A DNA stretch of 64,000 nt from an uncultured bacterium (GCA_964436465.1 CAYTCV010000002.1:34345-98344); one strand, 5' to 3'. Shown: positions 23,514 to 63,642, numbered from the stretch's first letter. The notes: generated from the letters alone by a model not told the origin. Made by a program: numbers and translations.

Positions 23514-26036
23514 CTACCGCGATACGACCAGCCTCTGCGTCGCCGTCGCCCCGCCGCCCGTCAGGCGGACGAGGTACACGCCGTTGGCGACGCCGTCGGT
23601 CGTCCAGGAGACCTCGTGGCGGCCCGCCGTGAATTCACCACTGGCGACGGTCCGGACCAGGCGGCCGGCCAGGTCGAAGACCTCGACCCGCACCGCACCG
23701 TCGGCGGCCAGGGTGAAGGGAATCGTGGTGCAGGCCCCGGCCGGGCAGGGGTAGCACGGTTCCAGGCTCGTGACCCGCGCCCCGGCTACCGTGCCGGTCA
23801 CCTCGACGGGACCGAACAGGCTCCGGGAGCCGTCGGCGCCCAGCGCCTCCAGCTTGTACGAGTAGACGGCACCGGGGGAGATGTCGAGGTCCAGGTAGCG
23901 TCCGCCGGTCATGGGAATCTCGTTCAGCCGGACGTAGCCGTCTTTTTCCTCTCGGAGTACGTTCACCCCGGTGATATCCGCCGGGTTGTCCGGTCTCCAC
24001 GAGAGCAGGATTCCCTCGTCCACGGCCTCGCCGGAGAAGGTCACGGAGCCGATGTCCGAGGTCTGCTCGGCCACGCTGATGTCGTCGAAGTAGAAGCCCT
24101 CTAGGGAAAGATTATTGTCGGAGGAGAAACGGAACCGCACCTCGACGTTGTTGCCCGTGTAGGCGGATAAATCGTAATTCTTCAAGGTCCAGTCCAGGTT
24201 CGCCCCGGTGAAGACGTCCTTTTCGACCCAGGCGCCGCTGTTCACCGCAACGTCGAGGTAAACGAAGTCGTAGTCTTCTTCCAGCTCGTATTTGAGCCAG
24301 AAGCTCAACTCGTCATGGTCGGCGTCCACGAAGATGGGGCAGGTCTTTATCCAGGAGTTCTGGTTTCCGCTGTAGGTGCCGGAGCCTGTGTCGCCGCATT
24401 TCCAGGAGTGGGTGGGCGAGTGCGCATCCTCCGTGGAGACGTGCCACTGGTCACCGGTGCCGCCGTGGGTCCAGAGTTCCCCATCCGACTCCACGTCGTC
24501 CTCGAAGCCCACCCCGACGACGATGCCGAAGGTGCCCTCGGTGGAGTAGTCGCCGTCGGCGGTGACGTCCAGGTTGGCGTAGGTGTTGTAGTGGTCGGGG
24601 CAGAAGCTGCTGATGCTGAATCTGAACGTGTCGGTGGCGGTCCCGCCGGCGGGGATGGAGCCGAAGTCGCCGGATGCGTCCGTGACGGTGAAGTATGTGT
24701 CGCCTATGGAGAGGGTGGCGGCGACGCCCGTCGCGGCGTCTATGCCTTCGTTCTTCAGGGTCACGGTCGCGTCAATCGTCTCGCCGGGGTCGAGCTTACC
24801 GTCGCCGTTACCGCCCACGGAATCGTCGTAGACGACGGAATCGAAGGCAATGGCCACCGGCTGCACGGGGTACGGGTCGGCGTACATCTCGAGAAATTCG
24901 TCCCACAGCGTGTCGGAGAAGTTTACCAGCGTGGTGTAGGTGGCCCAGTTTTGGTGGTCCGAGCCGTTCGTGGGGAAGTAGATGGACATCCCGCCGCCGG
25001 AGTCGGTGGCGCTGTGCATCCCGCCGGCCAGGATGTAGCCCTCGAGGTCGCCCGCGAACTGCGTGGCCTTGGTGCGCAGGTCGCCGGGCAGGGAGCCGTC
25101 GACGGCCAGGGCCTCCACGAACTGGTACAGGTCCCGGTCGTCCGGCGTGTTCCAGTAATCGGCGGAGTTCCGGGCGGTGACGATTCGGTCCTGGTAGGTG
25201 TAGCAGTTGTCGAATAGCGACTGGCAGAGGTCCGCCCAATCCTGGTCCATGTCGGCGGGCCAGCTCTTCACGTTCTGGGCGGCCTGGGTCACGCCGGAGC
25301 CGTAGAAGTCCAGGTAATCGTTGACTATTCGGGCGGCAATCTCCTCCGGGGTGACGCTCGAATCCTCCTCGAAGATGTTGAACGCCTGGTAATCCCACCC
25401 GTCTCCGGGCTCCGAATCCTCGCTGCAGATGCAGATGCCGGCGTCGTCGAGATACTGATAGCCGTTCTCGACCTGCCCGCCCAGGCACACGTCGAAGCCG
25501 ATGACGTCTATGAACTCCCCGACGTTCTCCAGGGCCTCCTCGATTTCCCAGATTTTCAGGTCGCTGCACATCCCGCGGTCTATCCAGTCCCGGGTCCCGT
25601 CCTCCAGAAAGATGCCGCTGCCGTGGTCCCAGGCGTCGAGGAGGAAGTTGTCGGCGGGATAGTTGGTGGTGACCCACTCCACGAAGTTTTCGAAAATCTG
25701 CGGGTCGTCCATGTCGGCCTCGTCGCCGGACCAGATGCCGTGACCCGTGATTTCCGGGGAGACGATGTCCTCGTAGTCACCCCCCGAGTAGCCGCCGGGG
25801 TCGGTCTGGATGTGGAAGAGCCGGGTGTGGTCGTCGGGGTCCCAGCCCACCATGACGATGACGTCCGCCCCGTCGGGGTAGGCGCCGTAGTTGCAGTCTT
25901 CCATCTCGTTGACGTCGTCCCAGCCGTAGGTTTTAAGGCTGTTCTGGTTGTTGAGCCAGACCATGACGGTCCAGGAACCGGCCATCGCCGCCGGGGGGAG
26001 CGCCAGGAGGATAAGGACCAACAGCAACTTCTTCAT
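23514..26036 (-). CDS. Secreted clostripain-family (C11) cysteine peptidase with beta-sandwich modules and Por-tail-like C-terminus
   Basis: Signal peptide from ATG 26036; WTVMVW, DAWDHGSG (His), GFDVCLGGQVE (Cys); C-terminal VEVFDLAGRLVR...NGVYLVRL. Confidence 0.8.
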   Translation of the reverse strand: MKKLLLVLILLALPPAAMAGSWTVMVWLNNQNSLKTYGWDDVNEMEDCNYGAYPDGADVIVMVGWDPDDHTRLFHIQTDPGGYSGGDYEDIVSPEITGHGIWSGDEADMDDPQIFENFVEWVTTNYPADNFLLDAWDHGSGIFLEDGTRDWIDRGMCSDLKIWEIEEALENVGEFIDVIGFDVCLGGQVENGYQYLDDAGICICSEDSEPGDGWDYQAFNIFEEDSSVTPEEIAARIVNDYLDFYGSGVTQAAQNVKSWPADMDQDWADLCQSLFDNCYTYQDRIVTARNSADYWNTPDDRDLYQFVEALAVDGSLPGDLRTKATQFAGDLEGYILAGGMHSATDSGGGMSIYFPTNGSDHQNWATYTTLVNFSDTLWDEFLEMYADPYPVQPVAIAFDSVVYDDSVGGNGDGKLDPGETIDATVTLKNEGIDAATGVAATLSIGDTYFTVTDASGDFGSIPAGGTATDTFRFSISSFCPDHYNTYANLDVTADGDYSTEGTFGIVVGVGFEDDVESDGELWTHGGTGDQWHVSTEDAHSPTHSWKCGDTGSGTYSGNQNSWIKTCPIFVDADHDELSFWLKYELEEDYDFVYLDVAVNSGAWVEKDVFTGANLDWTLKNYDLSAYTGNNVEVRFRFSSDNNLSLEGFYFDDISVAEQTSDIGSVTFSGEAVDEGILLSWRPDNPADITGVNVLREEKDGYVRLNEIPMTGGRYLDLDISPGAVYSYKLEALGADGSRSLFGPVEVTGTVAGARVTSLEPCYPCPAGACTTIPFTLAADGAVRVEVFDLAGRLVRTVASGEFTAGRHEVSWTTDGVANGVYLVRLTGGGATATQRLVVSR

Positions 26037-26107
26037 TGACGGGCTCCTTTGTCTGAAATAAAAAACGTCAAAAGTGTTTAAGCCGTAAAATGTACCTATC
26101 CACACAC

Positions 26108-35618: not shown

Positions 35619-35692
35619 TGGCTGGGGCGGTAGGATTCGAACCTACGATGACGGCTCCAAAGGCCGTTGACTTACCGCTTGTCGACGCCCCA
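35619..35692 (-). tRNA. tRNA-Gln (anticodon UUG), CCA encoded
   Basis: TGGGGCG acceptor stem, anticodon loop CT-TTG-GA, GGTTCGAATCC T arm, ends GCCA. Confidence 0.95.
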
Positions 35693-39048: not shown

Positions 39049-39924
39049 CTAGGCTTGAAATCCGCGGTGGAGCCCCAACCCCCGCGCGAAACTTCTGATG
39101 TCCTCCATCTCGCCGGGCGTGAGTCGCCGGTTCAGGTCCCCGTACTCCCCCGCCCGGTGGCACGGGCGGTACTGGTCCATGATGTTGACGTAACTCTCCG
39201 GGGACAGCTCCGCGATGAACCGCAGGACGCCCCGGGAGTCGGCCAGGCAGGCCGGGAGGACCAGGTGGCGGATTAACAGCCCCTTCCGGGCGACTCCGCG
39301 TTCGTCGGTTTCCAGAATTCCCACCTGCCGGTGCATTTCCCGAAAAATCCCGACGCATTTCTCGAAGTAGTCCGGCGCTTCCGAAAGCTCACCGGCGGGG
39401 GCCTCGGGGCCGTATTTGAAGTCGGGCATGTAGATATCCACCAGGCCGTCCAGCAGCTCGACGACCTCCCGGCTCTCGTACCCCCCGCAGTTCCACACCA
39501 GCGGCACCCGCAGGCCCATTTCTCGGGCGAGCCTCACCGCCTCGGCCAGCGGGGGGGCGATGTGCGTCGGTGTCACGAGATTGACGTTCTCGCAGCCGTT
39601 TCGTTCCAGGGTGAGCATCAGCCGGGCCAGCTCCTCGGCTCCCGCGGGTTTCCCCGCCGCCCGCTGGCTGATGTCGGCGTTCTGGCAGAAGAGGCAATGG
39701 AGGTTACAGCCGCCGAAGAAGATTGTCCCCGAGCCGCCGCGCCCGACCAACTCCGGCTCCTCCCCGAAGTGGGGACCGGCGGAGGTGACCCGCGGCACCG
39801 GCCCCACACCGCAGGACCCCTTTTCCCCAGCCGTCCGGTCCACCCCGCACGCTCTGGGACACAGGGCGCAATCCCGGTAAATCTCTCCGAGGCGTCGCTG
39901 CGATGCGTCGCGGTGTGCGGTCAT
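39049..39924 (-). CDS. Radical SAM protein, PflX-like
   Basis: CALCPRAC.V.R..G..G.C, GCNLHCLFCQN (CxxxCxxC), NLVTPTH, DIYMPDFKY, RHLVLP, MDQYRP. Confidence 0.85.
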   Translation of the reverse strand: MTAHRDASQRRLGEIYRDCALCPRACGVDRTAGEKGSCGVGPVPRVTSAGPHFGEEPELVGRGGSGTIFFGGCNLHCLFCQNADISQRAAGKPAGAEELARLMLTLERNGCENVNLVTPTHIAPPLAEAVRLAREMGLRVPLVWNCGGYESREVVELLDGLVDIYMPDFKYGPEAPAGELSEAPDYFEKCVGIFREMHRQVGILETDERGVARKGLLIRHLVLPACLADSRGVLRFIAELSPESYVNIMDQYRPCHRAGEYGDLNRRLTPGEMEDIRSFARGLGLHRGFQA

Positions 39925-42275
39925 CGGTCCAGGGCGGCCAGGCCGCGGCGGGCGTACTCCAGCAGTACCGACCCGGGGTAGCCGCTCATCAAGCCCGTCA
40001 GGTCGGCGACGGCGCCCTCGGCGTTTTCGAGAAAATCGGCGTCGAGCCAGGCCGCCAGGGCCAGCGCTCGGTCGCCCGTGCCTTCGGTGCCGGTGGTGAT
40101 GACGTCCGCGAGTACGTCGCGGGCTGAGGTGTAATCCCCCTCCCCGGCCAGGAGGTCGGCCAGTTGGACGGCCGCCTCGTCGCCCAGCGGACCGCCGCCG
40201 GCCAGGGCGTCACGGAGGCGGCGTTCCTCTGCGGACGAATCGCCCCGGTAGCCGGCCAGGTAAGCTTCCACCAGGTCGGCGAGCGTCGCCTTCTCACCGG
40301 GGCTCTCGGCGAAGCCCGAGGCCAGGACCAGGCGCAGGAGGTCCGTAGACCGGGGGTCCTCGGCGTTCAGCGCGATGTACCGCCGGACCCGATTTACGAC
40401 CGGACCCGGGTCGAAGGACGGGTCTGCGTTCAGCGTCTCCGCCAGGTGCGCGAGCTGCAGGAGCGTCAGCTGGTAGTGCAGCTCCGGTTCGGCCGGCTCT
40501 TCGAGGTCGTCCGGCGTCCGCCCGGTGAGTCCCCAGGCCCGTTCCGGCTCGTCCAGCCGCAGGGCGGCCTCGATACGCGCGGCGAGCAGCTCCTCCCCGT
40601 CGGGGCCGTACCCGCGGTCCGCCGTAATTTCACCCAGCAGTGCCTCCGCCTCGGCGGGCCGACCGCCGCGCAGGAGGAAGAGGGCCGTCCGCCATTTCAG
40701 CTCACCGTCGGTGGGGTTCAGGGCGAGGATTTCACCGGGCTCGCAGTCTCGAGCGCTCAGGTTATAAACGCAGGCGAGGGACAGACCGGCGGATGCGAGC
40801 GCCCCCCGGGCGGCGTCGGTCAGGCCCTGCAGCCCGGCCAGCCGCAGGGCGGCTTCGAGCGCCATCTCCGGCAGTCCGGCCTGTCCCAGGGCGTTCACCA
40901 GCTCGAGGGGGAGGATTCCGCCGGCGCCGACGAGCCAGGGGGTGATGTCGGCGTTCTCGGTGAAGAAGGCGGTCATGGAGCGGATTTCGTCCTCGACGAC
41001 CCGACGGGCGCGCTCGTCCAGTACCGGCGTCGGCCTCTCTTCGCGCCAGGGGTGGGGCAGCGGTCCGGGACCGTCCTCCTCGGTGACCAGGGCCCAGGGC
41101 GAGAGGGCGAGGACCAGGCGTACTCGGCTGTACACCGGCTCCTCGCGGCCCTCGAGGGTGTCCAGGGCGATGAGCGCCGTCTCCTCCTTCTCCCCGAAAT
41201 TTCCGAAAAAACCGACGGCCCAGGAGCCGGGACCCTCCTGGGAAATGGCCTCGATGCAGGTTTCGGCGGCATCCCGGTAGCGCCCGAGGGCGAAGAGGAG
41301 CCGGACGACGTCCCGACTGTAATCCGCCGAATCGCCGGTGGGCGGATTTTCCAGCAGTCGGAGCGCCTCCTCGTTGAGGCCGTGGTCGGAAAAAATCCGC
41401 GCCACCGTCCGCACGTCGCCCGGCCGCAGGTTGGGCCGGTCCAGCTTCGCCCGCCAGCTTTCCAGCGCCTCGTCCACGCGTCCCAGGGAGAAGAGGCATT
41501 CCCCCCGCTCGACGTACACCCGGTCGTCCCGGGAACCGTCCTGGCCCTCCCACAGCCCGAGGGCCTCGCCGGCGCGGCCCAAAGCGCGCAGCCTTTCGCT
41601 CGCCTCGCAGCGGAACTCCACCCGGTCCGGGTCCAGCTCGACCCGGTGCAGCGCCTCGGTCACCGCCACCTCGGGTCCCCGGGCGGACTCGGTCAGGCGG
41701 AGCCAGGTCTTCCAGGTGCCCAGGTCGAATGCGTAGGGGTCCCCCCCGTAGGAGGCCAGGGCGAGCTCGGCGATTTCCGGTCGGCGGGCCAGGTCGTCGA
41801 GCACGTTCCGGCACCGGGCGGGCTGGGAACCGGCCACCCGGGCGGCGGCCTCGAAGGCGTTTTTTTCCAGGAGCCGCTTCGCCAGTACGCCCGCCACGTC
41901 GTTCCATGCGTTGCGGCGCTCCGCGGCCTCGAACCAAAGCTGGAGGTCGGAGGGGTTTTGGGCGAAATAATCCCCCAGGGCCAGGGCGGCGGAGTCCAAT
42001 CCGCCCGGAGCCCGCTCGGGCAGCTCGAAAAGCCTGCCCAGGGCCTGTCGTCCCTCGCCCAGCTCCCGGCGCCAGAGGAAAATCTGGGTCTCGAACCGGC
42101 CCAGCTTGTCGGGATGAACCTCGCCCGCGTCCGCGGCCCGGGTCAGAATTTCCGCCGCCCCCGCGTAATCCCCGGAGTCGGCGGCGGACTGGGCCTCGGA
42201 CCAGGCATCCGCTGCGGCCGGCTTGACCAGCAGGAGGATGACCCATATAATTTTGTGAAACCGAGGTGACAACAT
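39921..42275 (-). CDS. Large exported TPR-like protein
   Basis: Signal-like N-terminus; Ala/Leu/Glu/Arg-rich helical repeats; 4-bp overlap with the PflX-like gene. Confidence 0.65.
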   Translation of the reverse strand: MLSPRFHKIIWVILLLVKPAAADAWSEAQSAADSGDYAGAAEILTRAADAGEVHPDKLGRFETQIFLWRRELGEGRQALGRLFELPERAPGGLDSAALALGDYFAQNPSDLQLWFEAAERRNAWNDVAGVLAKRLLEKNAFEAAARVAGSQPARCRNVLDDLARRPEIAELALASYGGDPYAFDLGTWKTWLRLTESARGPEVAVTEALHRVELDPDRVEFRCEASERLRALGRAGEALGLWEGQDGSRDDRVYVERGECLFSLGRVDEALESWRAKLDRPNLRPGDVRTVARIFSDHGLNEEALRLLENPPTGDSADYSRDVVRLLFALGRYRDAAETCIEAISQEGPGSWAVGFFGNFGEKEETALIALDTLEGREEPVYSRVRLVLALSPWALVTEEDGPGPLPHPWREERPTPVLDERARRVVEDEIRSMTAFFTENADITPWLVGAGGILPLELVNALGQAGLPEMALEAALRLAGLQGLTDAARGALASAGLSLACVYNLSARDCEPGEILALNPTDGELKWRTALFLLRGGRPAEAEALLGEITADRGYGPDGEELLAARIEAALRLDEPERAWGLTGRTPDDLEEPAEPELHYQLTLLQLAHLAETLNADPSFDPGPVVNRVRRYIALNAEDPRSTDLLRLVLASGFAESPGEKATLADLVEAYLAGYRGDSSAEERRLRDALAGGGPLGDEAAVQLADLLAGEGDYTSARDVLADVITTGTEGTGDRALALAAWLDADFLENAEGAVADLTGLMSGYPGSVLLEYARRGLAALDR

Positions 42276-55004: not shown

Positions 55005-56045
55005 TTACTCCAGGTCGTCGTCGGTCAGGGGTTGGTCAAATTCCAGGGTGTCTCTCAATCTTCGCCCGTACAGGCGTTCGACCCCGCGGGGGTCCAGGCC
55101 CACCGCCGGCCGTTTGGCGGCTAAATCCCCCGGGACCAGGCGGTGACCCGCCGGGAGCCTGCGCGTCGTCCGGAGGCCCTTCCGCGAGACGGAGCGGGTA
55201 TCCTCCTCGGAGGGGGTGGAGCGCTTCCGGCCATCGCCCAGAATGCGCTCCGTCGCGCGTATTCCGGTGACGAGCTCCCGGAATCCGGCCGGGTCCAGGC
55301 TGGCCGCGTGGTCGGGGCCGATTCCTTCCCGGTTAAGGGTGAAGTGCTTCTCCACGGCGCAGGCGCCCAGAGCCACGGCCAGGCAGGCGGTCTGGAAGCC
55401 GGGGCTGTGGTCGGAGAGGCCCACGGGACGGTCGAAGCGTTCGCGCAGGGCCGTCAGGGCGCGCAGGTTCATCTCCTCCACCGGGGCGGGGTACGCGCTG
55501 GTGCAGTGGAAGAGGAGAGTTTCCGCCCCCTCCAGACGGTCCACGGCCCAGGCGACGTCATCCAGATTCGCCATCCCGGTGGAGACCATGAGCGGGAGGC
55601 CGGTTTCGCGCGCGGCGTCCAGCACGAAGGGGTCGGTGAGCTCGCCGGAGCCGATTTTGAGCACCGGCACGCCCAGTTCCGCGGCGGCGCGCACGTCTCC
55701 CGGGGAGAAGGCCGAGAGGATGAAGTCCAGGCCCAGCCCGTCGCAACGGGATTTCACCCGGGCGAAGTCCCGAATGGAGAGCTTCAGTTTTTCCAGCATG
55801 GCCCGCTGGTCCTTACCACCGGCGCTGCGCTCCTGATAGCGTGCCAGGGGCGCATCGGCGGCGACGAGGTCCGCGGGGGTGAAGAGCTGGAACTTGACCG
55901 CGTCGGCCCCGCATTCCCCGGCGGCGGTGGCGATGTCCAGGGCCTTCTCCGGGTCGCCGTCGTGGTTCACCCCGCCCTCGGCTACGATATACACCGGCTC
56001 GCCGGGTCCCAACGGACGGTCGCCTACCCGGAAGGCGGCTACCAT
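55005..56045 (-). CDS. neuB: N-acetylneuraminate/legionaminate synthase with SAF domain
   Basis: IVAEGGVNHDG, DAVKFQ, KIGSGE, STGMA, HCTSAYPAP, GLSDHS, EKHFTL. Confidence 0.92.
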   Translation of the reverse strand: MVAAFRVGDRPLGPGEPVYIVAEGGVNHDGDPEKALDIATAAGECGADAVKFQLFTPADLVAADAPLARYQERSAGGKDQRAMLEKLKLSIRDFARVKSRCDGLGLDFILSAFSPGDVRAAAELGVPVLKIGSGELTDPFVLDAARETGLPLMVSTGMANLDDVAWAVDRLEGAETLLFHCTSAYPAPVEEMNLRALTALRERFDRPVGLSDHSPGFQTACLAVALGACAVEKHFTLNREGIGPDHAASLDPAGFRELVTGIRATERILGDGRKRSTPSEEDTRSVSRKGLRTTRRLPAGHRLVPGDLAAKRPAVGLDPRGVERLYGRRLRDTLEFDQPLTDDDLE

Positions 56046-56734
56046 CTCGCGGCCCTCTTGGCGTGGATGAGACCGGCCTCGGCCACCGCCATGTCCCAGG
56101 CGTCGTCCACGTCCACCGACTCCCGGGGTTCCATCACGAAGGCGGCGCAGCGGTCGCCGAGGATGCGGTCGTCGGCCAGGAGCGTCGGGGAGGTCACGTA
56201 AATCGCCCCGTTGGGGTAGTAAAATACGGGCAGCTCCTGCCGGCGGCCGGGTCGGTCCCGCTCGACGGGCTCGGCCAGCCCGTCGCTGACGCGGTAGGTC
56301 CAGGCCGGATTCTGGCGCATGGGGGTCAGCGAAACCAGGGAATCGAACCCCCCGCTCATGAGCCGGTCCAGCGCGGCGTCCAGATGGGCCGCGGTCCTCA
56401 GCGGCGAGGTCGGCTGCAGGAGCACCACCCAATCCGGCGCGTACCCCTCGTCGGCATGCAGGCTGGCCAGGGCGTGCTGGAGGACCTCCAGGGAGGTGGC
56501 CTCGTCGCCCGCCAGCTCTGCGGGACGCCGGAAGGGGACTTCGAGACCCAGGCGGCGCCCCAGGCTCGCGATTTCATCATCCTCGGTGGAGAGGACCGCC
56601 CGCAGGGGATGGACGGCCCCCAGGACGCAGTCGGCCGTGTAAGCCAAAAGCGGCCTCCCCCCCAGGGGGGCGATATTCTTCCGCTCCAGGCCCTTGGATG
56701 AGCCCCGGGCGGGGATGACGGCGAGAATCTCCAT
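56039..56734 (-). CDS. neuA: Acylneuraminate cytidylyltransferase
   Basis: IPARGSSKGLERKN, RPAELAGD, LQPTSPLR, NGAIY, SVDVD. Confidence 0.92.
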   Translation of the reverse strand: MEILAVIPARGSSKGLERKNIAPLGGRPLLAYTADCVLGAVHPLRAVLSTEDDEIASLGRRLGLEVPFRRPAELAGDEATSLEVLQHALASLHADEGYAPDWVVLLQPTSPLRTAAHLDAALDRLMSGGFDSLVSLTPMRQNPAWTYRVSDGLAEPVERDRPGRRQELPVFYYPNGAIYVTSPTLLADDRILGDRCAAFVMEPRESVDVDDAWDMAVAEAGLIHAKRAARW

Positions 56735-56853: not shown

Positions 56854-58176
56854 TCAGGCCAGCCACACGTTCCCGGCGTTCGGTATGCCCGCGGTGGCAT
56901 TCCGCGTGTCCACCACCAGGGCCGCGCGCCGGACCACCTCCCGGTAATCGTAGGCGGAATGGTTGGTCACGACGACCACGGCGTCATAGGCCGCGAGCTC
57001 GGAGTAGTTCTTCAGGGGTATGCTCTCCAGGCGCAGCTCGGTCTGGCGCGTGGCGGGCATCCGGGTGATAAACGGGTCGTGGTAGTCCACCTTCGCCCCG
57101 CGCGCGAGGAGGCCCTCCATGACCGGCACGGCCGGGCTTTCGCGCATATCGTCTATGTCGGGCTTGTAGGAGATGCCGAGAATTAAAATTTTCGCGCCCC
57201 GGAGCGGCTTGCCCGCCTGGTTGAGCGCCTCGGCGGTACGCTCCACGACGAAGCGGGGCATCCCCGTGTTAATCTCGCCGGCCAGCTCGATGAAGCGGGT
57301 GCTGAACTCGTACTCGTGGGCCTTCCAGGTGAGGTAGAAGGGGTCGATGGGGATGCAGTGCCCCCCGAGGCCCGGCCCCGGGCGGAAGGGCATGAAGCCG
57401 AAGGGCTTCGTCGAGGCGGCGTCGATGACCTCGTGCAGGTTGACCCCCATGCGCAGCGCCAGCATCTTCAGCTCGTTAACCAGGGCGATGTTCACGGCCC
57501 GGAAGGTGTTCTCGAAGATTTTCGTCATCTCGGACACCTCGAGGCCGGACACCGGGACCGTTTGTTCGAAGACGCGGTCGTAGAAATTTTTGGCCAGGTC
57601 CAGCCCCGCCGGAGTCAGCGCGCCGATGACCTTGGGAATCGTCCGGGTCCGGTAGTCCTTGTTGCCCGGGTCCTCCCGCTCCGGGGAAAAGGCGAGGAAG
57701 AAGTCCGTCCCGCCTTTGAGGCCCGACCCCTCCTCGAGGATGGGCCGGACGACCTCCCGGGTGGTGCCGGGGTAGGTGGTGGATTCGAGAATCACCACCT
57801 GTCCCTTCTTCAGCCGACGGGCCACGTCCCGGGCCGTGATTTCGACGAAGCTCAGGTCCGGCTGCCGGTGGCCGTCCAGCGGCGTGGGTACGCAGATGGC
57901 GATGACGTCCACTTCCGCCAGGCGGTCCAGGTCGCCGGTCGCCTCGAAGATGCCCGAGTCCACGTAAGGCTTGATGCGCCCGGCCGGTATCTGCTGGATG
58001 TAGCTCTCGCCTTGGCGCAGGTGTTCCACCTTCGACGGGTCGATGTCGAAGCCGAGGACGCGGATGCCGGCCTCGGCGAACTCCAGGGCGAGGGGCAGCC
58101 CGACGTAGCCCAGTCCGATGACGCCGAAAACGGCCGGACCCTCTTTCAGTTTTTTGGCCAGTTCGTTGTGGTTCAT
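56854..58176 (-). CDS. Nucleotide-sugar (UDP-GlcNAc) 6-dehydrogenase, WbpA/WecC/TviB family
   Basis: GLGYVGLP, ICVPTP, ESTTYPGTT, SPERED, ENTFRAVNIA, GGHCIPIDP; ATG 58176 after GAGG. Confidence 0.92.
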   Translation of the reverse strand: MNHNELAKKLKEGPAVFGVIGLGYVGLPLALEFAEAGIRVLGFDIDPSKVEHLRQGESYIQQIPAGRIKPYVDSGIFEATGDLDRLAEVDVIAICVPTPLDGHRQPDLSFVEITARDVARRLKKGQVVILESTTYPGTTREVVRPILEEGSGLKGGTDFFLAFSPEREDPGNKDYRTRTIPKVIGALTPAGLDLAKNFYDRVFEQTVPVSGLEVSEMTKIFENTFRAVNIALVNELKMLALRMGVNLHEVIDAASTKPFGFMPFRPGPGLGGHCIPIDPFYLTWKAHEYEFSTRFIELAGEINTGMPRFVVERTAEALNQAGKPLRGAKILILGISYKPDIDDMRESPAVPVMEGLLARGAKVDYHDPFITRMPATRQTELRLESIPLKNYSELAAYDAVVVVTNHSAYDYREVVRRAALVVDTRNATAGIPNAGNVWLA

Positions 58177-58180
58177 ATCC

Positions 58181-58648
58181 TCATCGGGTGTGGTAGAGAA
58201 GTGGTTTGAGCCGTTGTACAAGTTGCAGGGTAAACCGACCGCAGGCGCCGCCCAGGCCGTGGGTGCGTCGGTAAAGCCGGTGGACGAGCCAGGCCAGCCG
58301 GGCCCGCGCGGGCATCGCTCTCACGGCGCGGACGGAGCCGTTCCACCGGCGGGCCGTGACGCGGCCGATGAGTCTCCCGGCGCGCTCCACCGCCAGAACC
58401 GTATCCGCGTTTCCCCACCAGCCGTCGGCGTCCCGGTGGCAGAGACGGTGGACGACCTCGAGGCCGTCGGTATTTATATAGGCCGCGATTTCGCCGACCT
58501 GCGGAGGCGCCTCCCCGAAGGGCTCCAGTAGTATATCGGCCCCGTCGGGGAGCAATTCACCGTGGCATCGGCCACGGCTCTTCACCCAGCGGGGACCGCT
58601 CTCTCGCAGCGCTTCCGCTATGAGCCCGGCTTTCAGGTCTAGGTTAAT
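58181..58648 (-). CDS. S24/S26 (signal-peptidase-like) family protein of the RiPP cassette
   Basis: L.AEALR..G...VKSRGRCH..LL.DG..I......QVGEIAAY......VVHR pattern; frame is open to ATT 58648 after GAGGGTGG. Confidence 0.55.
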   Translation of the reverse strand: MNLDLKAGLIAEALRESGPRWVKSRGRCHGELLPDGADILLEPFGEAPPQVGEIAAYINTDGLEVVHRLCHRDADGWWGNADTVLAVERAGRLIGRVTARRWNGSVRAVRAMPARARLAWLVHRLYRRTHGLGGACGRFTLQLVQRLKPLLYHTR

Positions 58649-58712
58649 CCCACCCTCTTCCGTTCATGGATTCGAGGGGTTTTAATCCGCCTCAAGTAAC
58701 CGTCCGCTCGCC

Positions 58713-58892
58713 CTAGGAATTGTAGGGGATGATAGTGCAGTGGTCTGGAAGCATCTGGTATTCGCACGCCTGCACCGTACCCTTCTTACATACTACCAAG
58801 TCACCTTGAATATCATACACACAACTCACCGACGATTCCTGAAAGATTTTCTCACTCGTCAGGCTGGGCGATGTGTAGCTCTTCTTGTTCAT
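58713..58892 (-). CDS. Putative RiPP precursor peptide, 59 aa
   Basis: MNKKSYTSPSL leader (YxxPxL); Cys24/35/43/52; AAGGA upstream; directly follows the rSAM/SPASM gene. Confidence 0.75.
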   Translation of the reverse strand: MNKKSYTSPSLTSEKIFQESSVSCVYDIQGDLVVCKKGTVQACEYQMLPDHCTIIPYNS

Positions 58893-59976
58893 TTCCGTTT
58901 CCTTTTCGTGTGAGGTGTGCGGCCTGGGCTGATGTGTAATCGCGCGCCATCCGACAGATGCTGGGCGAGGACTTCCAAAGGCTGCCGGTTTCGATGAGGG
59001 CCAGGCCGGGGCAACGCATGCAATCATTGGCAAGCTCACAATCCCGGCAGTCAGGTATCGGGAGTGTGAGCATGCTCATCAGATAGAGGGTAAGCGGAGA
59101 ATGATGCCATATTTTCCTCAAGGTGCTCCGTCGGACGTTTCCCATCGAGGCTCGCATTTGCATGCAGGGAAACACCTCGCCGTCGGGCGTGACGGTCAGG
59201 CTCGAGAAACCGGCGGTGCAGGAAACGGCGTGAAAGACCCTCCGCCATTCCGTATTCTCCGGGGACTCGCCCTCCGGTGGGATATTTTGCGCGCGTTCGT
59301 AGTTATCAAGAATAAAACATTGTTCCTCGGCGTTGAGCGCCCTCTCCAGGGGTCCCGTGCCGCCGTCGTTGGCCAGGGTGATGTTCATGCTCAGGAGCGG
59401 GTGACCTCCCAACGACAGCATGTACCGGTCCAGCTCGTTGACCACGCTGTAATTCGATTTTAACAGACTGCCCTTGAGGTTGACGAATACCCCGGCGGCC
59501 CGGAGTCTTTTTACCGCCGCCACCGTGGCGTCGAAGCTGCCGGGAGTGCGGGTCACGGCTTCGTGCGTCGCGGCGTCGGGTCCGTGGAGGGAGATGTCGA
59601 CGTAGCGGACCCCGCACCGAACCAGGTGGTCCACGTCCTCCCCGGTCAGGGTCGTGGCGTTGGTGAAGAGGCGAACCATCACTTCCCGCCGGTGCAGCTC
59701 CTCCAGGATGTCCCAGAATCCCGGATTCAGTGTCGGTTCACCACCGGTGACGGTCACATAGAACGCCCCCAGGTCGGCGAGCTCGCGGATGGTCCGGAGC
59801 CAATCCTCGACCGGCATCTCCTCCCGGTGGGGGTCATCCGGCGTCAGGTAACAGTGCGTGCACCGGAGGTTGCAGCGGTAGGTCAGCTCGAAGGTGACGA
59901 GATAGGGGATATGACGTTGGAAGGCTTTCCAGCGGAACTTTTTGAAGGCTGTCGGTTCTGTGGCCCCGTCATTCAT
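58852..59976 (-). CDS. Radical SAM/SPASM peptide maturase (PqqE/SkfB-like)
   Basis: CNLRCTHC, TGGEP, SPASM CTAG..TVTPDGEVFPC...CRDC...CMRCPG...C. Confidence 0.9.
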   Translation of the reverse strand: MNDGATEPTAFKKFRWKAFQRHIPYLVTFELTYRCNLRCTHCYLTPDDPHREEMPVEDWLRTIRELADLGAFYVTVTGGEPTLNPGFWDILEELHRREVMVRLFTNATTLTGEDVDHLVRCGVRYVDISLHGPDAATHEAVTRTPGSFDATVAAVKRLRAAGVFVNLKGSLLKSNYSVVNELDRYMLSLGGHPLLSMNITLANDGGTGPLERALNAEEQCFILDNYERAQNIPPEGESPENTEWRRVFHAVSCTAGFSSLTVTPDGEVFPCMQMRASMGNVRRSTLRKIWHHSPLTLYLMSMLTLPIPDCRDCELANDCMRCPGLALIETGSLWKSSPSICRMARDYTSAQAAHLTRKGNGNEQEELHIAQPDE

Positions 59977-60014
59977 TCAGCTTAAAGCCGCCTGTTCGAA
60001 TCGCGCGGTGGAGG

Positions 60015-60299
60015 TCAGCGCTTGTATTCCACCAATCCCTTTTCCCCGAGCGCCTTGAAGAACGTCGTCAAATCGGTCCGGAGCTGATTCGGCTCCACGT
60101 CGTATTCCGCAAGGATGGAGCCTTCGATGTCGTCGAAGCTGCGCTTTCCGTCTATCAGTTTCCAGATGAGGCTCCCCACCTCGTTGAAGTTGTGGAGCGT
60201 ACCGTCGTCGGGGGTGATGGCGAAGATTTCTCCGTCCATCTCCTGAGAGGGGATGTGCCCCGTCTTCACGGGCACCGCGTCGGGGTCGTAGGTTTTCAT
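60015..60299 (-). CDS. PqqD-family RiPP recognition element (RRE)
   Basis: EMDGEIF...LHNFNEVGSLIWKLIDGKRS..DI...I.AEYDV......D...F...L..KGLV. Confidence 0.9.
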   Translation of the reverse strand: MKTYDPDAVPVKTGHIPSQEMDGEIFAITPDDGTLHNFNEVGSLIWKLIDGKRSFDDIEGSILAEYDVEPNQLRTDLTTFFKALGEKGLVEYKR

Positions 60300-61294
60300 C
60301 GGAGGATGTCGAGCCTTTCGCCGAAGTGGCCGAGGATGTAAGTCAGCGAGCGGAACGGCGGGTCCGCGAGGTAGAGCCCCAGCAGCCTGGAGTGCGTCCG
60401 GACCCCGCCCGACATCGGCCTCAGGAATTTCCTCCCGAATCTACCCGGTCGGAGCGGTTCTCCGGGCGGAACGAGCCTCCTCAACGTCGGATAGCATCTC
60501 AGGTAGGCCACCGCGAAACAGACCGTCCGCTCCAATCCCGCCTTGCGCGCATTCGCGTAGAGTTTACCCCAATCGAGGCCGGGACACAACATCCAGATAT
60601 CGTACACCGACAGGAGGTGGTAGTCGAAGAAGTGGTTCCCGCAGAGGTGGACCAGGCAGAAGAGCGCCGCGTCCTCCCTCGACGGCACCCATAGCTTGAC
60701 TCCGTGCAGGTCCAGGGGTATGGGCTCTTCGCCGAACCTGTACCGGGCGTTGTACCTCCCCGGCGCGGTGAGGGCGTAGTGAACTTCCAGGACGGTCCGG
60801 TCCCTGCCCCAGATGAGGTGGTTCCAACGCCGCCAGAGCCTGCGTCCCAGCCGCCCCCGGGTTTCCAGCCTCCAGCCCGTTTTCTCCGCCGCCTCGGCGA
60901 ACCGGGCCATCTTCCCGCGTTCTACGTAAATGTCTATATCCGACGCCGGCCGGGTGGCGGGCGGGTACAGCCGCGCGCGGAAATCCAACCCTTTTAACGC
61001 CAGAGGTCGCAGGTCCTCCGTCTCCGCCAGAAGGTCCAGGAGCGGGGCGGTTTGAACCAGTTCCCGGCAGGTCTCCCGACGCCGCTCTTCCTTCAGCGAG
61101 TCGAGAATCTCTTTTTGCAAGCCCTGTGCCAGGCCCCCGCCGCCCAGACTCCAATCCGCCAGCGGGGCCAGCCGCTCCCGCCTCAGCCGTTCAACTGCGT
61201 CGGGCGTCTCTATAATATGACGAGCCAGAGCATCCGGCTCTCGACTCGTCAGCGCGGTGAAGAGGGTTACTTTTTGCCCCGGAAACGTTTCCAA
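60296..61294 (-). CDS. Nucleotidyltransferase family protein (lasso/RiPP-associated type)
   Basis: LALKGLDF...YP....RPASDIDIYV, LEVHY; ATGA overlap with the RRE gene. Confidence 0.8.
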   Translation of the reverse strand: METFPGQKVTLFTALTSREPDALARHIIETPDAVERLRRERLAPLADWSLGGGGLAQGLQKEILDSLKEERRRETCRELVQTAPLLDLLAETEDLRPLALKGLDFRARLYPPATRPASDIDIYVERGKMARFAEAAEKTGWRLETRGRLGRRLWRRWNHLIWGRDRTVLEVHYALTAPGRYNARYRFGEEPIPLDLHGVKLWVPSREDAALFCLVHLCGNHFFDYHLLSVYDIWMLCPGLDWGKLYANARKAGLERTVCFAVAYLRCYPTLRRLVPPGEPLRPGRFGRKFLRPMSGGVRTHSRLLGLYLADPPFRSLTYILGHFGERLDILR

Positions 61295-63642
61295 ATCGAA
61301 CCTTTGGACCGCTCCGCTTCGTCGTCGCTGTGGTAGTAATAGTAGTGGTAGTACCTGTGCGACCTGTACGTTCGGGTGAGGTCCACTTTATTCAAAACAA
61401 AGCCCAGGATTTGAGCCCGCGCGTTTTTCAGGAGGTTGACCGCTTCCTTGACGGCCTCGGCCTCGCTCACCTCGGACTCGACAACGAGGATGGTTCCGTC
61501 GACCAGGGTTCCCAGGATTGCGGGGTCGGTCACCGCCAGGACGGGGGAGGTGTCCAGAATCACCTTGTCGTAATCCTGGCGGAATCGTTCGATGATTTCC
61601 TTTGTTCGGCGGCTGGACAGCAGCTCCGAGGGATTCGGCGGCGGGTGACCCGAGGGGAGGACGAAGAGGTTCTCGACCCGGGTGGGTCGGATGACTTCCT
61701 CGTCGGTTCTGTCCCCGAGGATGAGCTCGGTGAAACCGGGTGTGTTGGGAATGTTGAAGAAACGGTGCATCTTCGCCTTGCGCAGGTCTGTGTCCACCAG
61801 GAGGGTTTTATGGCCCTGCTGGGCGATGGACACACCAAGGTTCGCCGAGGTCGTGGTCTTCCCCTCACCCTTGCTGGGGCTCGTGATGGACAGAACGCGA
61901 ATCTGCTTGTCGATGCTGAAGTACTGGATATTCGTGCGGATAATGCGGTACGTTTCCGCGATGGGGGAACGCGGATTTTCCAGGACCGTCAGGTGACCCT
62001 CGCCGAGTTCCTCGAACTCCTCGGTCGCTTTCGGTATCGAGCCGATGTGCGTGAGCCCGGTCAGGTTCGCGACCTCATCGGCCGATTTCACCGTCGTGTC
62101 GTTCATCTCGACTATCATGGCCAGGCCGATTCCAATGACGAGGCCGATAATCAGGCCGAGGAGAAGGTCCGATACATGGTTGGGGCTCACCGGCTCCGCG
62201 GGTCGGATGGCCCGGTCGATGATGCGGACATCGCCCGTTTCCATGCTCTCGTTGATGCGGGCCTCCTCGTACCGCTCGAGGAGCAGTGAGTGAATCTTCG
62301 ACGCGACGTCGCTTTTTCGCTGCCGGATGGAGAGCTCCATCTCCTCCCGCGGCATGATGGAGAGCTCCGAGGTCATCTCGGATATGGTTTCCTGCGTTTC
62401 CTCGAGCTTGGATTTGGCGCCTTCGATGGAAATTCCGAGGGCGCCGGAGTCGACGATGTAGGAGAGCCGCCGCTCTATGTTGTTTTCGAGGTCGTACAGC
62501 TCGCCATCGATCTCGGATAGCCGGGGGTTGAGTGGACCGGAGGTTTGTTTCAACTGCTGTTTCTCGACCGTCAGCTCCCCGGCCGTCTGGACGAAATCCT
62601 TCAACAGCTGGTCCGTCTGGAATGTAGGCCATGAGCTGATGGCCATCAGCGTGTCGAGGTCGATTTCGCCCCGATTCAGGTAATTCTCGACGGTTCTCTG
62701 CTGTTCCTCCAGCTCGGCGAGGTCCCGTTCCAGGTTGTTCCTGTTCTCCTCGATTCTGCTCAAGCGGCTAATCAGCTCCCGGGCCTCGTCGTTGAAGGAC
62801 ACGATGCCCAGCTCTTCCTTGTATTCCCTGAGAAGGTCCTCGGTCAGCCGCAGCTTGACTTCGGCCACCTCGATTTGCTCCCCGATGAACTCCCGGGCCT
62901 TTCGGGCGCGCTCCTGCTTCCAGCGAAGATTCTCATCCACATAAACCTCGGCGACGGTGTTCGCCAGCCTGGCCACCATCTTCGGGTCCGTGTGGGAGAC
63001 GCTCACGGTGAATGCGTTTGAGTCTCTGGCCTGTTGCACGCTGATGGACTGGCGGATACGCTCGGCTTCCTGGATGGGGTTCGTCGACTGGATAATGATG
63101 ATTCGCTTGGGGTGGGGCTCGGGGTCGTGGAGGGTGAAGCCGAAAAGCCCGTCCTTCGATGCGAAGGGCTGGTCGTAGAGACCTTCGCCGATGACGTTGT
63201 GCGCGTCGTCCAGCACTGAGAAGCCGGTCTCGCTCTCGATGACTCTGTATCGGCCGACGGGGAAGCCGATTTCGACGAAGGGGTCCTCAAAGTAAACGCC
63301 TTCGGGCATCTGTGCCTGGGGGTGGAAGGCGAGGTTCAACCGCTCGACCACGTCCAGGCAGATGGAGCGACTCGAGATAATCTGAAGCTCGGTCTCCAGG
63401 CGATACGGCTGGAAGGACGTGTAAAAGCCCTGCAGGAGGTCGGTGTTCTGTCCCGAGGCCTCCAGGACCAGGGACGCCGTCGCCACAAAAATCGGGGGAG
63501 TTGTGTAGGATTGGTAGGCGGCAATCGTGAGCGATATCAGCGCGGCGAAGATGATTATCCACTTCCGCTTCCGCAGAACGAGGAGGTATTCCGAAACCTT
63601 GGGTGCGCCGCGCGCGCGGCCTGGATTGGTCGGTTGTTCCAC
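61267..63642 (-). CDS. wzc: Wzc polysaccharide co-polymerase / BY tyrosine kinase
   Basis: Two TM helices, coiled-coil periplasmic region, AETYR.IRTNI, Walker A GEGKTTT, DTDLR, DTSP, C-terminal Tyr cluster YRSHRYYHYYYY. Confidence 0.93.
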   Translation of the reverse strand: MEQPTNPGRARGAPKVSEYLLVLRKRKWIIIFAALISLTIAAYQSYTTPPIFVATASLVLEASGQNTDLLQGFYTSFQPYRLETELQIISSRSICLDVVERLNLAFHPQAQMPEGVYFEDPFVEIGFPVGRYRVIESETGFSVLDDAHNVIGEGLYDQPFASKDGLFGFTLHDPEPHPKRIIIIQSTNPIQEAERIRQSISVQQARDSNAFTVSVSHTDPKMVARLANTVAEVYVDENLRWKQERARKAREFIGEQIEVAEVKLRLTEDLLREYKEELGIVSFNDEARELISRLSRIEENRNNLERDLAELEEQQRTVENYLNRGEIDLDTLMAISSWPTFQTDQLLKDFVQTAGELTVEKQQLKQTSGPLNPRLSEIDGELYDLENNIERRLSYIVDSGALGISIEGAKSKLEETQETISEMTSELSIMPREEMELSIRQRKSDVASKIHSLLLERYEEARINESMETGDVRIIDRAIRPAEPVSPNHVSDLLLGLIIGLVIGIGLAMIVEMNDTTVKSADEVANLTGLTHIGSIPKATEEFEELGEGHLTVLENPRSPIAETYRIIRTNIQYFSIDKQIRVLSITSPSKGEGKTTTSANLGVSIAQQGHKTLLVDTDLRKAKMHRFFNIPNTPGFTELILGDRTDEEVIRPTRVENLFVLPSGHPPPNPSELLSSRRTKEIIERFRQDYDKVILDTSPVLAVTDPAILGTLVDGTILVVESEVSEAEAVKEAVNLLKNARAQILGFVLNKVDLTRTYRSHRYYHYYYYHSDDEAERSKGSIWKRFRGKK

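Follow-up and report, generated by a model that had tools for sequence, protein, structure and literature searches.

Peptide maturation systems that combine a radical S-adenosylmethionine (SAM) enzyme of the SPASM type with a precursor recognition element (RRE) are well known from the biosynthesis of peptides that are ribosomally synthesised and modified post-translationally (RiPPs), and judging from its genes the cassette described here belongs to this generic kind. Its nearest relatives are uncharacterised cassettes resembling SynChlorMet (SCM; TIGR04248-TIGR04251, representing ScmC, ScmD, ScmE and ScmF), in which an HprK-like P-loop protein is found together with a PqqD-family protein and a radical SAM enzyme, with or without an S24-like protein. 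SCM has been defined bioinformatically and no product of it is known; its curators are not known to have identified the SCM precursor. The lasso peptide clusters of the paeninodin and pseudomycoidin type in Firmicutes provide a second reference point, as they hold a stand-alone PqqD-type RRE, a precursor with a Y-x-x-P-x-L leader and a terminal Ser, and a nucleotidyltransferase (NTase) with a DxD motif. HprK homologues in lasso clusters phosphorylate the C-terminal Ser of the precursor, and a hexose is put on the phospho-Ser by PsmN, described as an 'uncharacterised nucleotidyltransferase', in which the DxD is essential (PMC8498205, PMC6993621) and which requires that this Ser is phosphorylated (PMC6993621). 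The present cassette is located at positions 58181-61294 on the minus strand of a 64,000-nucleotide stretch of DNA from an uncultured bacterium (GCA_964436465.1, CAYTCV010000002.1:34345-98344), hereafter called the window. It encodes, in this order, an NTase, a PqqD-family RRE, a radical SAM/SPASM maturase (rSAM), a small open reading frame (ORF) and a peptidase-fold protein, and we consider it on balance probable that these five genes constitute a RiPP maturation cassette working by a four-step scheme. No published description of the cassette was found in literature searches.

An earlier note on this DNA had pointed to five co-oriented, tightly packed genes in this region, and the ORF listing and the sequence agree with it in both coordinates and content. 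The ORF of the NTase and pqqD overlap by 4 nt at the NTase stop, and the small ORF overlaps the 3' end of the rSAM gene by 41 nt (58852-58892) in a different frame. At the borders of the cassette, the end of wzc and the NTase ORF overlap by 28 nt, and a gap of approximately 5 nt separates the peptidase stop from the start of a dehydrogenase gene. Comparable loci were fetched in three ways, via the rSAM, via the 134-aa peptidase-fold protein and via a metagenome scan, and were annotated with hidden Markov models (HMMs) built from the window and its relatives. The closest rSAM homologues bear the name Candidatus Coatesbacteria (e.g. RBG_13_66_14), and the same five-gene order was present in every locus recovered from this clade (L001/2/19, L003/4/24, L005, L006/20, L007/21, L008, L011, L018, L022 and L023, with L017 being the window itself) over a range of rSAM identities from 39 to 87%. 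A scan of genome contigs with the peptidase profile yielded three true loci and two spurious ones; the latter (L009 and L010) were rejected as cassette loci, the match being to a sulfite-reductase-like protein that shares the word GLEVIHRLC.

The small ORF (58713-58892, minus strand, 59 aa) has, as judged by sequence and conservation, the leader/core pattern typical of RiPPs and is taken to be a genuine precursor gene. Its ATG is preceded by a Shine-Dalgarno sequence, AAGGAAACGGAA, and the product can be divided into the leader MNKKSYTSPSLTSEKIFQESS and the core VSCVYDIQGDLVVCKKGTVQACEYQMLPDHCTIIPYNS. The leader contains the motif Y6-x-x-P9-x-L11 within the consensus K-K-S-Y-x-x-P-x-L-x-S-E-x-I-F, and the core has four Cys, the last of which is followed by seven residues ending in a C-terminal Ser. 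A Y-x-x-P-x-(L/I/V/F) motif is what lasso B1-type RREs read, and it defines lasso leaders; its presence in the precursor fits the best named match of the cassette's own RRE, the sub-threshold lasso_PqqD_Bac (see below). The ORF is found at the same place in all syntenic loci, with frame, leader, four Cys and terminal Ser kept, and its start context and tail length are retained even where the overlap with the rSAM gene is absent or minimal (L003 and L011). Moreover, the rSAM tail (...GNEQEELH...) is conserved only at loci with the overlap while the precursor leader is conserved everywhere, which indicates that the precursor frame is the constrained one in the overlap. pN was lower than pS for the small ORF in every pair compared.

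Alignment of 15 precursors, distant members included, showed that Y6, P9, S13, F17, C24, C52 and S59 are invariant and that position 11 is hydrophobic. For the 12 members of the subfamily to which the window belongs, the mean identity was 75% over the first 21 residues compared with 44% over the remainder. The first Cys was always residue 24 in these members, the spacings between the four Cys were 9-11, 5-7 and 8-11 residues, and the tail after the last Cys always had seven residues of the form x-h-h-P-x-[D/N/E]-S, so that all 12 end in Ser. Also conserved are a pair of small residues, [A/S][S/A], just before Cys24, aromatic residues two positions past Cys1 and Cys3, and a C-(Q/K)-K motif. The earlier note had predicted a short precursor with a YxxPxL leader of the RRE-recognised type and had suggested collecting precursors from syntenic loci; the invariance of Y6 and P9 and the conservation of the small ORF beside homologous rSAMs bear this prediction out.

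A profile search of a collection of 5.8 billion proteins returned 33 clusters of precursor homologues, none with a functional name, some of which sit beside distant rSAMs. Three subfamilies could be distinguished: subfamily A, the exopolysaccharide (EPS)/NTase type; subfamily B, with sequences of the form MKRRYEKPxIGSERVFSLASQACDVN..., from Coatesbacteria and Zixibacteria; and subfamily C, of the form ...RKPYQKPAVESERIFETTALACGKC...PVTS, which is encoded at loci L026 and L028. Across all three, Ser is the C-terminal residue in 31 of the 33 clusters and Thr in another; the remaining cluster is an aberrantly long form. A 51-aa ORF at L012, which ends in Thr, was left out of the count, being only a weak candidate for a precursor. 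With regard to the region 3' of the precursor gene in the window, we found no terminator-like site, and the fold of a possible terminator or attenuator hairpin was not better than that of shuffled sequences (z = +0.97).

The stand-alone PqqD-family protein, which would act as peptide chaperone, is encoded at 60015-60299 (minus strand, 94 aa; PF05402, E = 3.4e-15). Its highest score to a named family was 44.2 bits to lasso_PqqD_Bac (NF033536; cut-off 80), closely followed by the GeoRSP PqqD (TIGR04302; 42 bits, cut-off 100) and ScmD (41 bits, cut-off 100). The rSAM gene lies at 58852-59976 (minus strand, 374 aa) and encodes both a radical SAM domain (PF04055, E = 2.7e-28) and a SPASM domain (PF13186, E = 2.2e-11), without a fused RRE. 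Its CX3CX2C motif for the radical SAM cluster is intact (C35-N-L-R-C39-T-H-C42) and so is the seven-Cys SPASM motif (C253x17C271, C310xxC313x5C319xxC322...C341); all motif cysteines, including the seven of the SPASM domain, are invariant among 13 orthologues. ScmE was the best NCBIfam match (121.3 bits against a cut-off of 400), and MftC (109 bits, cut-off 265), PqqE (97 bits, cut-off 381), ScmF (87.4 bits, cut-off 400), GeoRSP TIGR04303 (77 bits, cut-off 400) and the sactipeptide enzymes StsB, AlbA and SkfB (86-94 bits, far below cut-off, StsB scoring 94 against 625) followed. Membership of the lasso, SCM, GeoRSP, mycofactocin and PQQ (pyrroloquinoline quinone) families was rejected on the curated NCBIfam cut-offs, and by these scores the cassette falls outside every curated family model.

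The fifth gene (58181-58648, minus strand, 155 aa; called ORF 58181-58585, 134 aa) was the most difficult to assign. The 134-aa protein gave no direct match in Pfam even at an E-value of 10 and none in NCBIfam, and a PDB profile search with a shallow alignment of 12 sequences returned only noise. An exhaustive profile search of 1.84 billion representatives recovered 58 relatives, and seven of the ten relatives scanned, retrieved at E-values from 2e-08 to 1e-03, were members of the Pfam family Peptidase_S24/S26; two of these seven are fused to a GNAT domain. C-terminal fusions to a GNAT acetyltransferase were seen in the remote S24-like relatives P0143, P0146 and P0151. A profile of 44 sequences matched human SEC11C and SEC11A with E-values of 2.6e-07 and 3.2e-07, and also bacterial signal peptidase I (SPase I) and LexA, the SEC11 boxes SGSMEP, VHRV and GDNN being aligned to G-x-C-H-G-E, VHRL and GNAD. 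His46, Arg47, Asp61 and Gly74 are invariant in the 44-sequence alignment, and the invariant His and Asp imply a Ser-His-Asp rather than a Ser-Lys geometry. The nucleophile column of the G-x-S-M-x-P box is occupied by Cys7 in the clade of the window (G-R-C-H-G-E); Ser and Cys alternate in this column across several lineages, with Cys (G-x-C-M-x-P) also in P0138, P0139, P0142, P0159, P0164 and P0191. When remote homologues were added to the alignment, the AlphaFold model reached a mean predicted local distance difference test (pLDDT) of 91.4, compared with 53 for the shallow alignment. Its top Foldseek matches were the C-terminal domain of lambda cI, SEC11A and E. coli SPase I (probability 0.97-1.00, with weak E-values of 0.015-0.1), and the model shows no transmembrane anchor and has two basic amphipathic helices at the end of the protein. 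From profile and model we conclude that the protein is a divergent member of the S24/S26 clan of the Sec11/SipW type with a putative Cys-His-Asp triad. It shares the fold and the boxes G-x-S-M-x-P, V-H-R-h and G-D-x-x with Sec11A/C, archaeal SPase I and SipW (MEROPS S26B) and with the S24 proteins LexA, UmuD and cI, and differs from them in having a putative Cys nucleophile, no membrane anchor and, presumably, a cytoplasmic RiPP leader as substrate.

It should be noted that the Cys7-His46-Asp61 numbering is counted from the GTG at 58585, and that this called start is probably wrong. Approximately 21 codons upstream of it (58586-58648) are conserved at the protein level in all loci as I-N-L-D-L-K-A-G-L-I-A-E-A-L-R-x-x-G-P-R-W, and there is no ATG, GTG or TTG between the in-frame stop and the called GTG. 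Six loci of the window clade have a conserved ATT, ATC or ATA five bases past a GAGG-like box, and divergent loci have ATG or TTG at this point. The sequence comparison thus places the true start most probably at the conserved ATT at 58648, giving the 155-aa gene stated above.

The NTase gene (60296-61294, minus strand) encodes a 332-aa member of PF14907 (NTP_transf_5; E = 2.9e-30) with a Pol-beta-type motif, G102...D119-x-D121, that is invariant in seven orthologues. No NCBIfam match, no sequence relative in the PDB and no tblastn match in plasmids was obtained for it. The earlier note had assigned this gene, the stand-alone RRE and the SPASM maturase on the same lines, which the Pfam matches and intact motifs corroborate, and its candidate peptidase did turn out to have an S24/S26 fold, visible only by profile search, by AlphaFold with a deep alignment and by fold search. 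It is also evident that the absence of a lasso cyclase, a B2 protease and an HPr-like kinase from the window was correctly observed: the 51 predicted genes of the window, scanned with Pfam, included no lasso cyclase resembling asparagine synthase, no transglutaminase-like B2 and no HprK-like protein, and an HMM built here for ScmC/HprK-like proteins matched no window ORF. The proposed link to the accessory enzymes of the paeninodin and pseudomycoidin clusters was strengthened by a feature not raised in the note: the precursor and 31 of the 33 precursor clusters end in Ser, on which the kinases and NTases of those lasso clusters act.

Outside the Coatesbacteria clade the rSAM identity falls to 28-36%, and the homologues in this range occur in cassettes that also encode a PqqD protein and a P-loop protein, the latter matching Pfam ScmC (PF27840) and, weakly, HprK-related kinase models. 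As judged by gene order, the PF14907 NTase of the window occupies the position of the HprK-like kinase of these sister cassettes. One of them, a paralogous cassette from the same phylum (L014, 3460-7074, in the complete Coatesbacteria genome CP070633.1), encodes an HprK-like P-loop protein, two tandem precursors of subfamily B (64 and 65 aa, both with a leader of the type seen in the window and both ending in Ser), a PqqD and an rSAM/SPASM; a MatE exporter gene adjoins this kinase-type cassette on the opposite strand. Two others (L051, 913-7080, and L038, 645-6546) hold an rSAM-ScmC-like fusion, a PqqD, an S24-like peptidase and a second rSAM/SPASM, together with a Cys-rich ORF of 60 aa that has a distinct leader (MKKxWxTPELVxLF...) and ends in Ser. 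A methyltransferase weakly similar to the daptide methyltransferase was also seen in this cassette type. Taken together, the precursors of the sister cassettes show a terminal Ser associated with an HprK-like protein in no fewer than four precursor types. The S24-like gene is likewise recurrent, being present in the sister cassettes L012, L032, L038 and L051, and its homologues are found by PqqD and HprK-like genes at L015, L032, L038 and L051; at L015 the remote S24-GNAT fusion directly adjoins the ScmC and PqqD genes. In an unrelated, low-GC locus (L044, 253-4147), an rSAM/SPASM with a C-terminal PqqD fusion shares the locus with an HprK-like P-loop protein; a PF14907 NTase (E = 1.5e-29) is encoded convergently, and a 59-aa ORF upstream ends in Thr. 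L044 indicates that NTase and kinase can co-occur beside an rSAM, as they do in pseudomycoidin clusters.

When the locus is compared with the described systems, the closest resemblance is to SCM, with which it shares the stand-alone PqqD and an rSAM whose best named relative is ScmE; several precursors of SCM-like cassettes moreover have the leader K-x-Y-x-K-P-x-h-x-S-E-R-h-F and the terminal Ser in common with the window. In contrast to SCM, the window has no ScmC/HprK-like gene, has a single SPASM enzyme, carries the PF14907 NTase at the position of ScmC and has its cassette embedded in an EPS operon. The cassette also lacks the lasso cyclase, the B2 transglutaminase-type protease, the HprK kinase and the ABC exporter of the paeninodin and pseudomycoidin clusters; the core modifier is a radical SAM/SPASM enzyme instead, and the candidate for the leader peptidase is of the S24/S26 fold. 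With sactipeptide and ranthipeptide systems (AlbA, SkfB, StsB, PapB and CteB) it shares a full-SPASM rSAM, a Cys-containing precursor and, presumably, RRE-dependent leader recognition. However, the RRE in those systems is usually fused to the maturase whereas the window encodes it as a separate protein, the precursor belongs to an unrelated family, an NTase and an S24-like Cys protease are not part of them, and thioethers like those that they form are for the window a putative product. Mycofactocin (MftA-F), which is glycosylated later, and PQQ (PqqA-E) resemble the cassette in relying on a PqqD-family chaperone that is a protein of its own, on a SPASM rSAM and a peptidase, and on a small peptide whose C-terminus is conserved; the core of the present precursor is, however, Cys-rich and hypervariable, and flavoenzyme or oxidase partners are missing. 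The statement of the earlier note that the set of genes is not a characterised class therefore holds in the sense that no curated model covers it and no paper was found, but the cassette is not isolated, being a variant of the catalogued SCM-like cassettes. What is new relative to these is the swap of kinase for NTase, the precursor family with its terminal-Ser rule, the Sec11-like peptidase with a putative Cys nucleophile, and the fixed site in the EPS operon.

This operon had not been mentioned in the earlier note. The cassette is located between wzc and a UDP-sugar dehydrogenase gene in all nine loci with enough flanking sequence. In the window, the upstream gene (61267-63642, minus strand) encodes a Wzc-type chain-length determinant and tyrosine autokinase according to NCBIfam and Pfam, with Wza further upstream, and the downstream gene (56854-58176, minus strand) encodes the UDP-sugar dehydrogenase Ugd (TIGR03026, E = 1.3e-126). 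The operon continues with genes for a CMP-nonulosonate (NulO) synthetase, NeuB, a methyltransferase, a 2-epimerase and a DegT aminotransferase, and also includes a Wzx-like flippase, glycosyltransferases and a Wzy-like polymerase. The NeuB ORF (55005-56432, minus strand; 475 aa from a TTG) and the CMP-nonulosonate synthetase gene (56039-56734) have approximately 390 nt in common; since the NeuB orthologues have approximately 346 aa, the real start of NeuB lies downstream of the listed TTG. The tight junctions on both sides of the cassette, that is, the 28-nt overlap and the gap of about 5 nt, make it very likely, on sequence grounds, that it is co-transcribed with the flanking Wza-Wzc...Wzx/Wzy genes for a nonulosonic-acid polysaccharide.

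The genes of the cassette differ in how fast they have diverged. When the window was compared with L003, L005, L008 and L023, the identities were only 64-68% for PqqD and 53-57% for the rSAM, and the precursor core changed as well, whereas the NTase (67-82%), the peptidase (67-86%), Wzc (70-86%) and the dehydrogenase (82-92%) were better conserved. In the most divergent locus, L011, the identities were 39% for the NTase, 39% for PqqD/rSAM, 53% for Wzc and 70% for Ugd. This pattern fits a situation in which PqqD and the rSAM read the variable core and the NTase and the peptidase read invariant features, and the fast divergence of PqqD, rSAM and precursor core suggests diversifying selection, or exchange by recombination, inside a conserved operon.

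In the four-step scheme that we favour, the stand-alone PqqD/RRE would bind the precursor via its N-terminal leader, as is known for this family. The RRE would then hand the precursor over to the rSAM/SPASM enzyme, which would use its SAM cluster and two auxiliary clusters to cross-link the four-Cys core intramolecularly, with thioethers formed from Cys as the likeliest type. The Sec11/SipW-like Cys-His-Asp protein would presumably cut off the leader near the small-residue pair before Cys24, and finally the PF14907 NTase would, by analogy with paeninodin and pseudomycoidin, put a nucleotidyl or sugar-phosphate group on the side-chain hydroxyl of Ser59. Several points weigh against this scheme. 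For every member it is built on sequence or on a structural model. The rSAM has near-equal scores (85-120 bits) to ScmE, MftC, AhbD, PqqE and sactipeptide maturases, and the type of cross-link appears unreadable from its sequence. With Cys instead of the catalytic Ser, the peptidase-fold protein could also be inactive and serve for binding only. As the cassette has no kinase, the NTase would have to act on the Ser hydroxyl directly or use a kinase encoded elsewhere, and PsmN may or may not be a member of PF14907. The slow divergence of the NTase tracks the EPS genes in most loci, so that it might serve the polysaccharide pathway, and no exporter or immunity gene was found in the cassette.

The alternatives differ mainly in which part of the scheme they give up. 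The mildest keeps the cassette logic and changes the chemistry: the Cys would form disulfides or serve as metal ligands, and the rSAM would make a C-C or C-O link, with one of the conserved aromatics (C-x-Y/F at Cys1 and Cys3, and W/F in the tail) or else the Lys that follows Cys2 as acceptor. We regard this as somewhat unlikely though deserving serious attention, and it is compatible with the overall scheme. The conservation of these aromatics and of the C-(Q/K)-K motif speaks in its favour, as does the Cys spacing, which differs from the regular spacing of hairpin sactipeptides; on the other hand, the Cys are the sole invariant residues of the core besides the terminal Ser, and full-SPASM enzymes with Cys-rich substrates mostly form thioethers. 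It is less likely that the peptide cassette comprises only PqqD, rSAM, precursor and peptidase, the NTase leaving the peptide untouched and having its role in the polysaccharide pathway, for instance in the activation or transfer of a sugar or phospho substituent. The best argument for this is that the NTase identity across loci (67-85%) tracks that of Wzc (70-91%) and not that of PqqD/rSAM (53-87%). Its ORF also overlaps wzc, and PF14907 is not confined to RiPP contexts, one other setting being next to PEP mutase. Yet the NTase overlaps pqqD as well, and at L011 it has diverged as far as PqqD/rSAM, well beyond Wzc and Ugd. PF14907 is found with HprK-like and rSAM-PqqD genes at L044 and with lasso clusters (PMC8498205, PMC6993621), and an invariant terminal Ser needs a modifier, the slot of the NTase being held by a kinase in the sister cassettes.

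A further reading, which we find improbable, follows the logic of PQQ and mycofactocin: the peptide would be a sacrificial scaffold from which a few residues, e.g. those of the tail x-h-h-P-x-D-S, become a small-molecule cofactor or a substituent of the polysaccharide. The stand-alone PqqD and the peptidase, the strictly conserved C-terminus, the position in a metabolic operon with neither exporter nor immunity gene, and the ranking of MftC and PqqE among the best named rSAM relatives would all agree with this. The scores of the latter two are, however, far under their cut-offs, an oxidase or another enzyme that would finish a cofactor is missing, and four Cys with conserved spacing over a hypervariable core are the signature of a structured peptide product rather than of a scaffold. 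That the small ORF arose by chance, and that the rSAM and PqqD act on another substrate such as a sugar or a protein, can be considered highly improbable. The ORF has no Pfam or NCBIfam match, overlaps the rSAM 3' end and has a GC content of 47% compared with 58-68% in its neighbours; against this stand its occurrence with the same features at every syntenic locus, even at L003 and L011, which lack the rSAM overlap, the low pN relative to pS, and the 33 homologous clusters, including those beside distant rSAMs.

These findings have several implications. They supply a concrete precursor family for SCM-like rSAM cassettes, which as far as we found have so far been catalogued only bioinformatically. 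Tailoring of a C-terminal Ser, by an HprK-like kinase or by a PF14907 NTase, is suggested to be a portable module shared by lasso and radical SAM RiPPs. A leader peptidase with the Sec11/SipW fold and a Cys nucleophile would be a new type of protease in RiPP biosynthesis. The fixed site in the Wzx/Wzy EPS operon of a candidate phylum also raises the possibility of a link between RiPPs and surface polysaccharides. An extension of this idea, for which we see only a small chance, is that the peptide, instead of being a free RiPP of the antibiotic type, is a working part of the capsule/EPS machinery. Once cross-linked by the rSAM and nucleotidylated or phospho-glycosylated by the NTase at its terminal Ser, it would prime, cap or anchor the nonulosonic-acid polysaccharide, or else regulate the Wzc kinase. 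If so, the outcome would be a ribosomal peptide-glycan conjugate from a RiPP cassette fixed between wzc and nucleotide-sugar genes.

A few other features of the window are worth recording. The gene of a second radical SAM protein, of the non-SPASM type (291 aa; Radical_SAM and Fer4_12), is translationally coupled to that of a 784-aa TPR protein; the pair lies at 39049-42275 (minus strand), just past the point where the EPS operon ends. Two proteins encoded at 16335-18218 and 23514-26105 (minus strand) carry C-terminal Por_Secre_tail domains for sorting by the type IX secretion system (T9SS), one being a C11 peptidase of the clostripain family that also has a MAM-like domain. The only Rfam/ARAGORN match in the 64-kb window was a tRNA-Gln with a TTG anticodon (35619-35692, minus strand).

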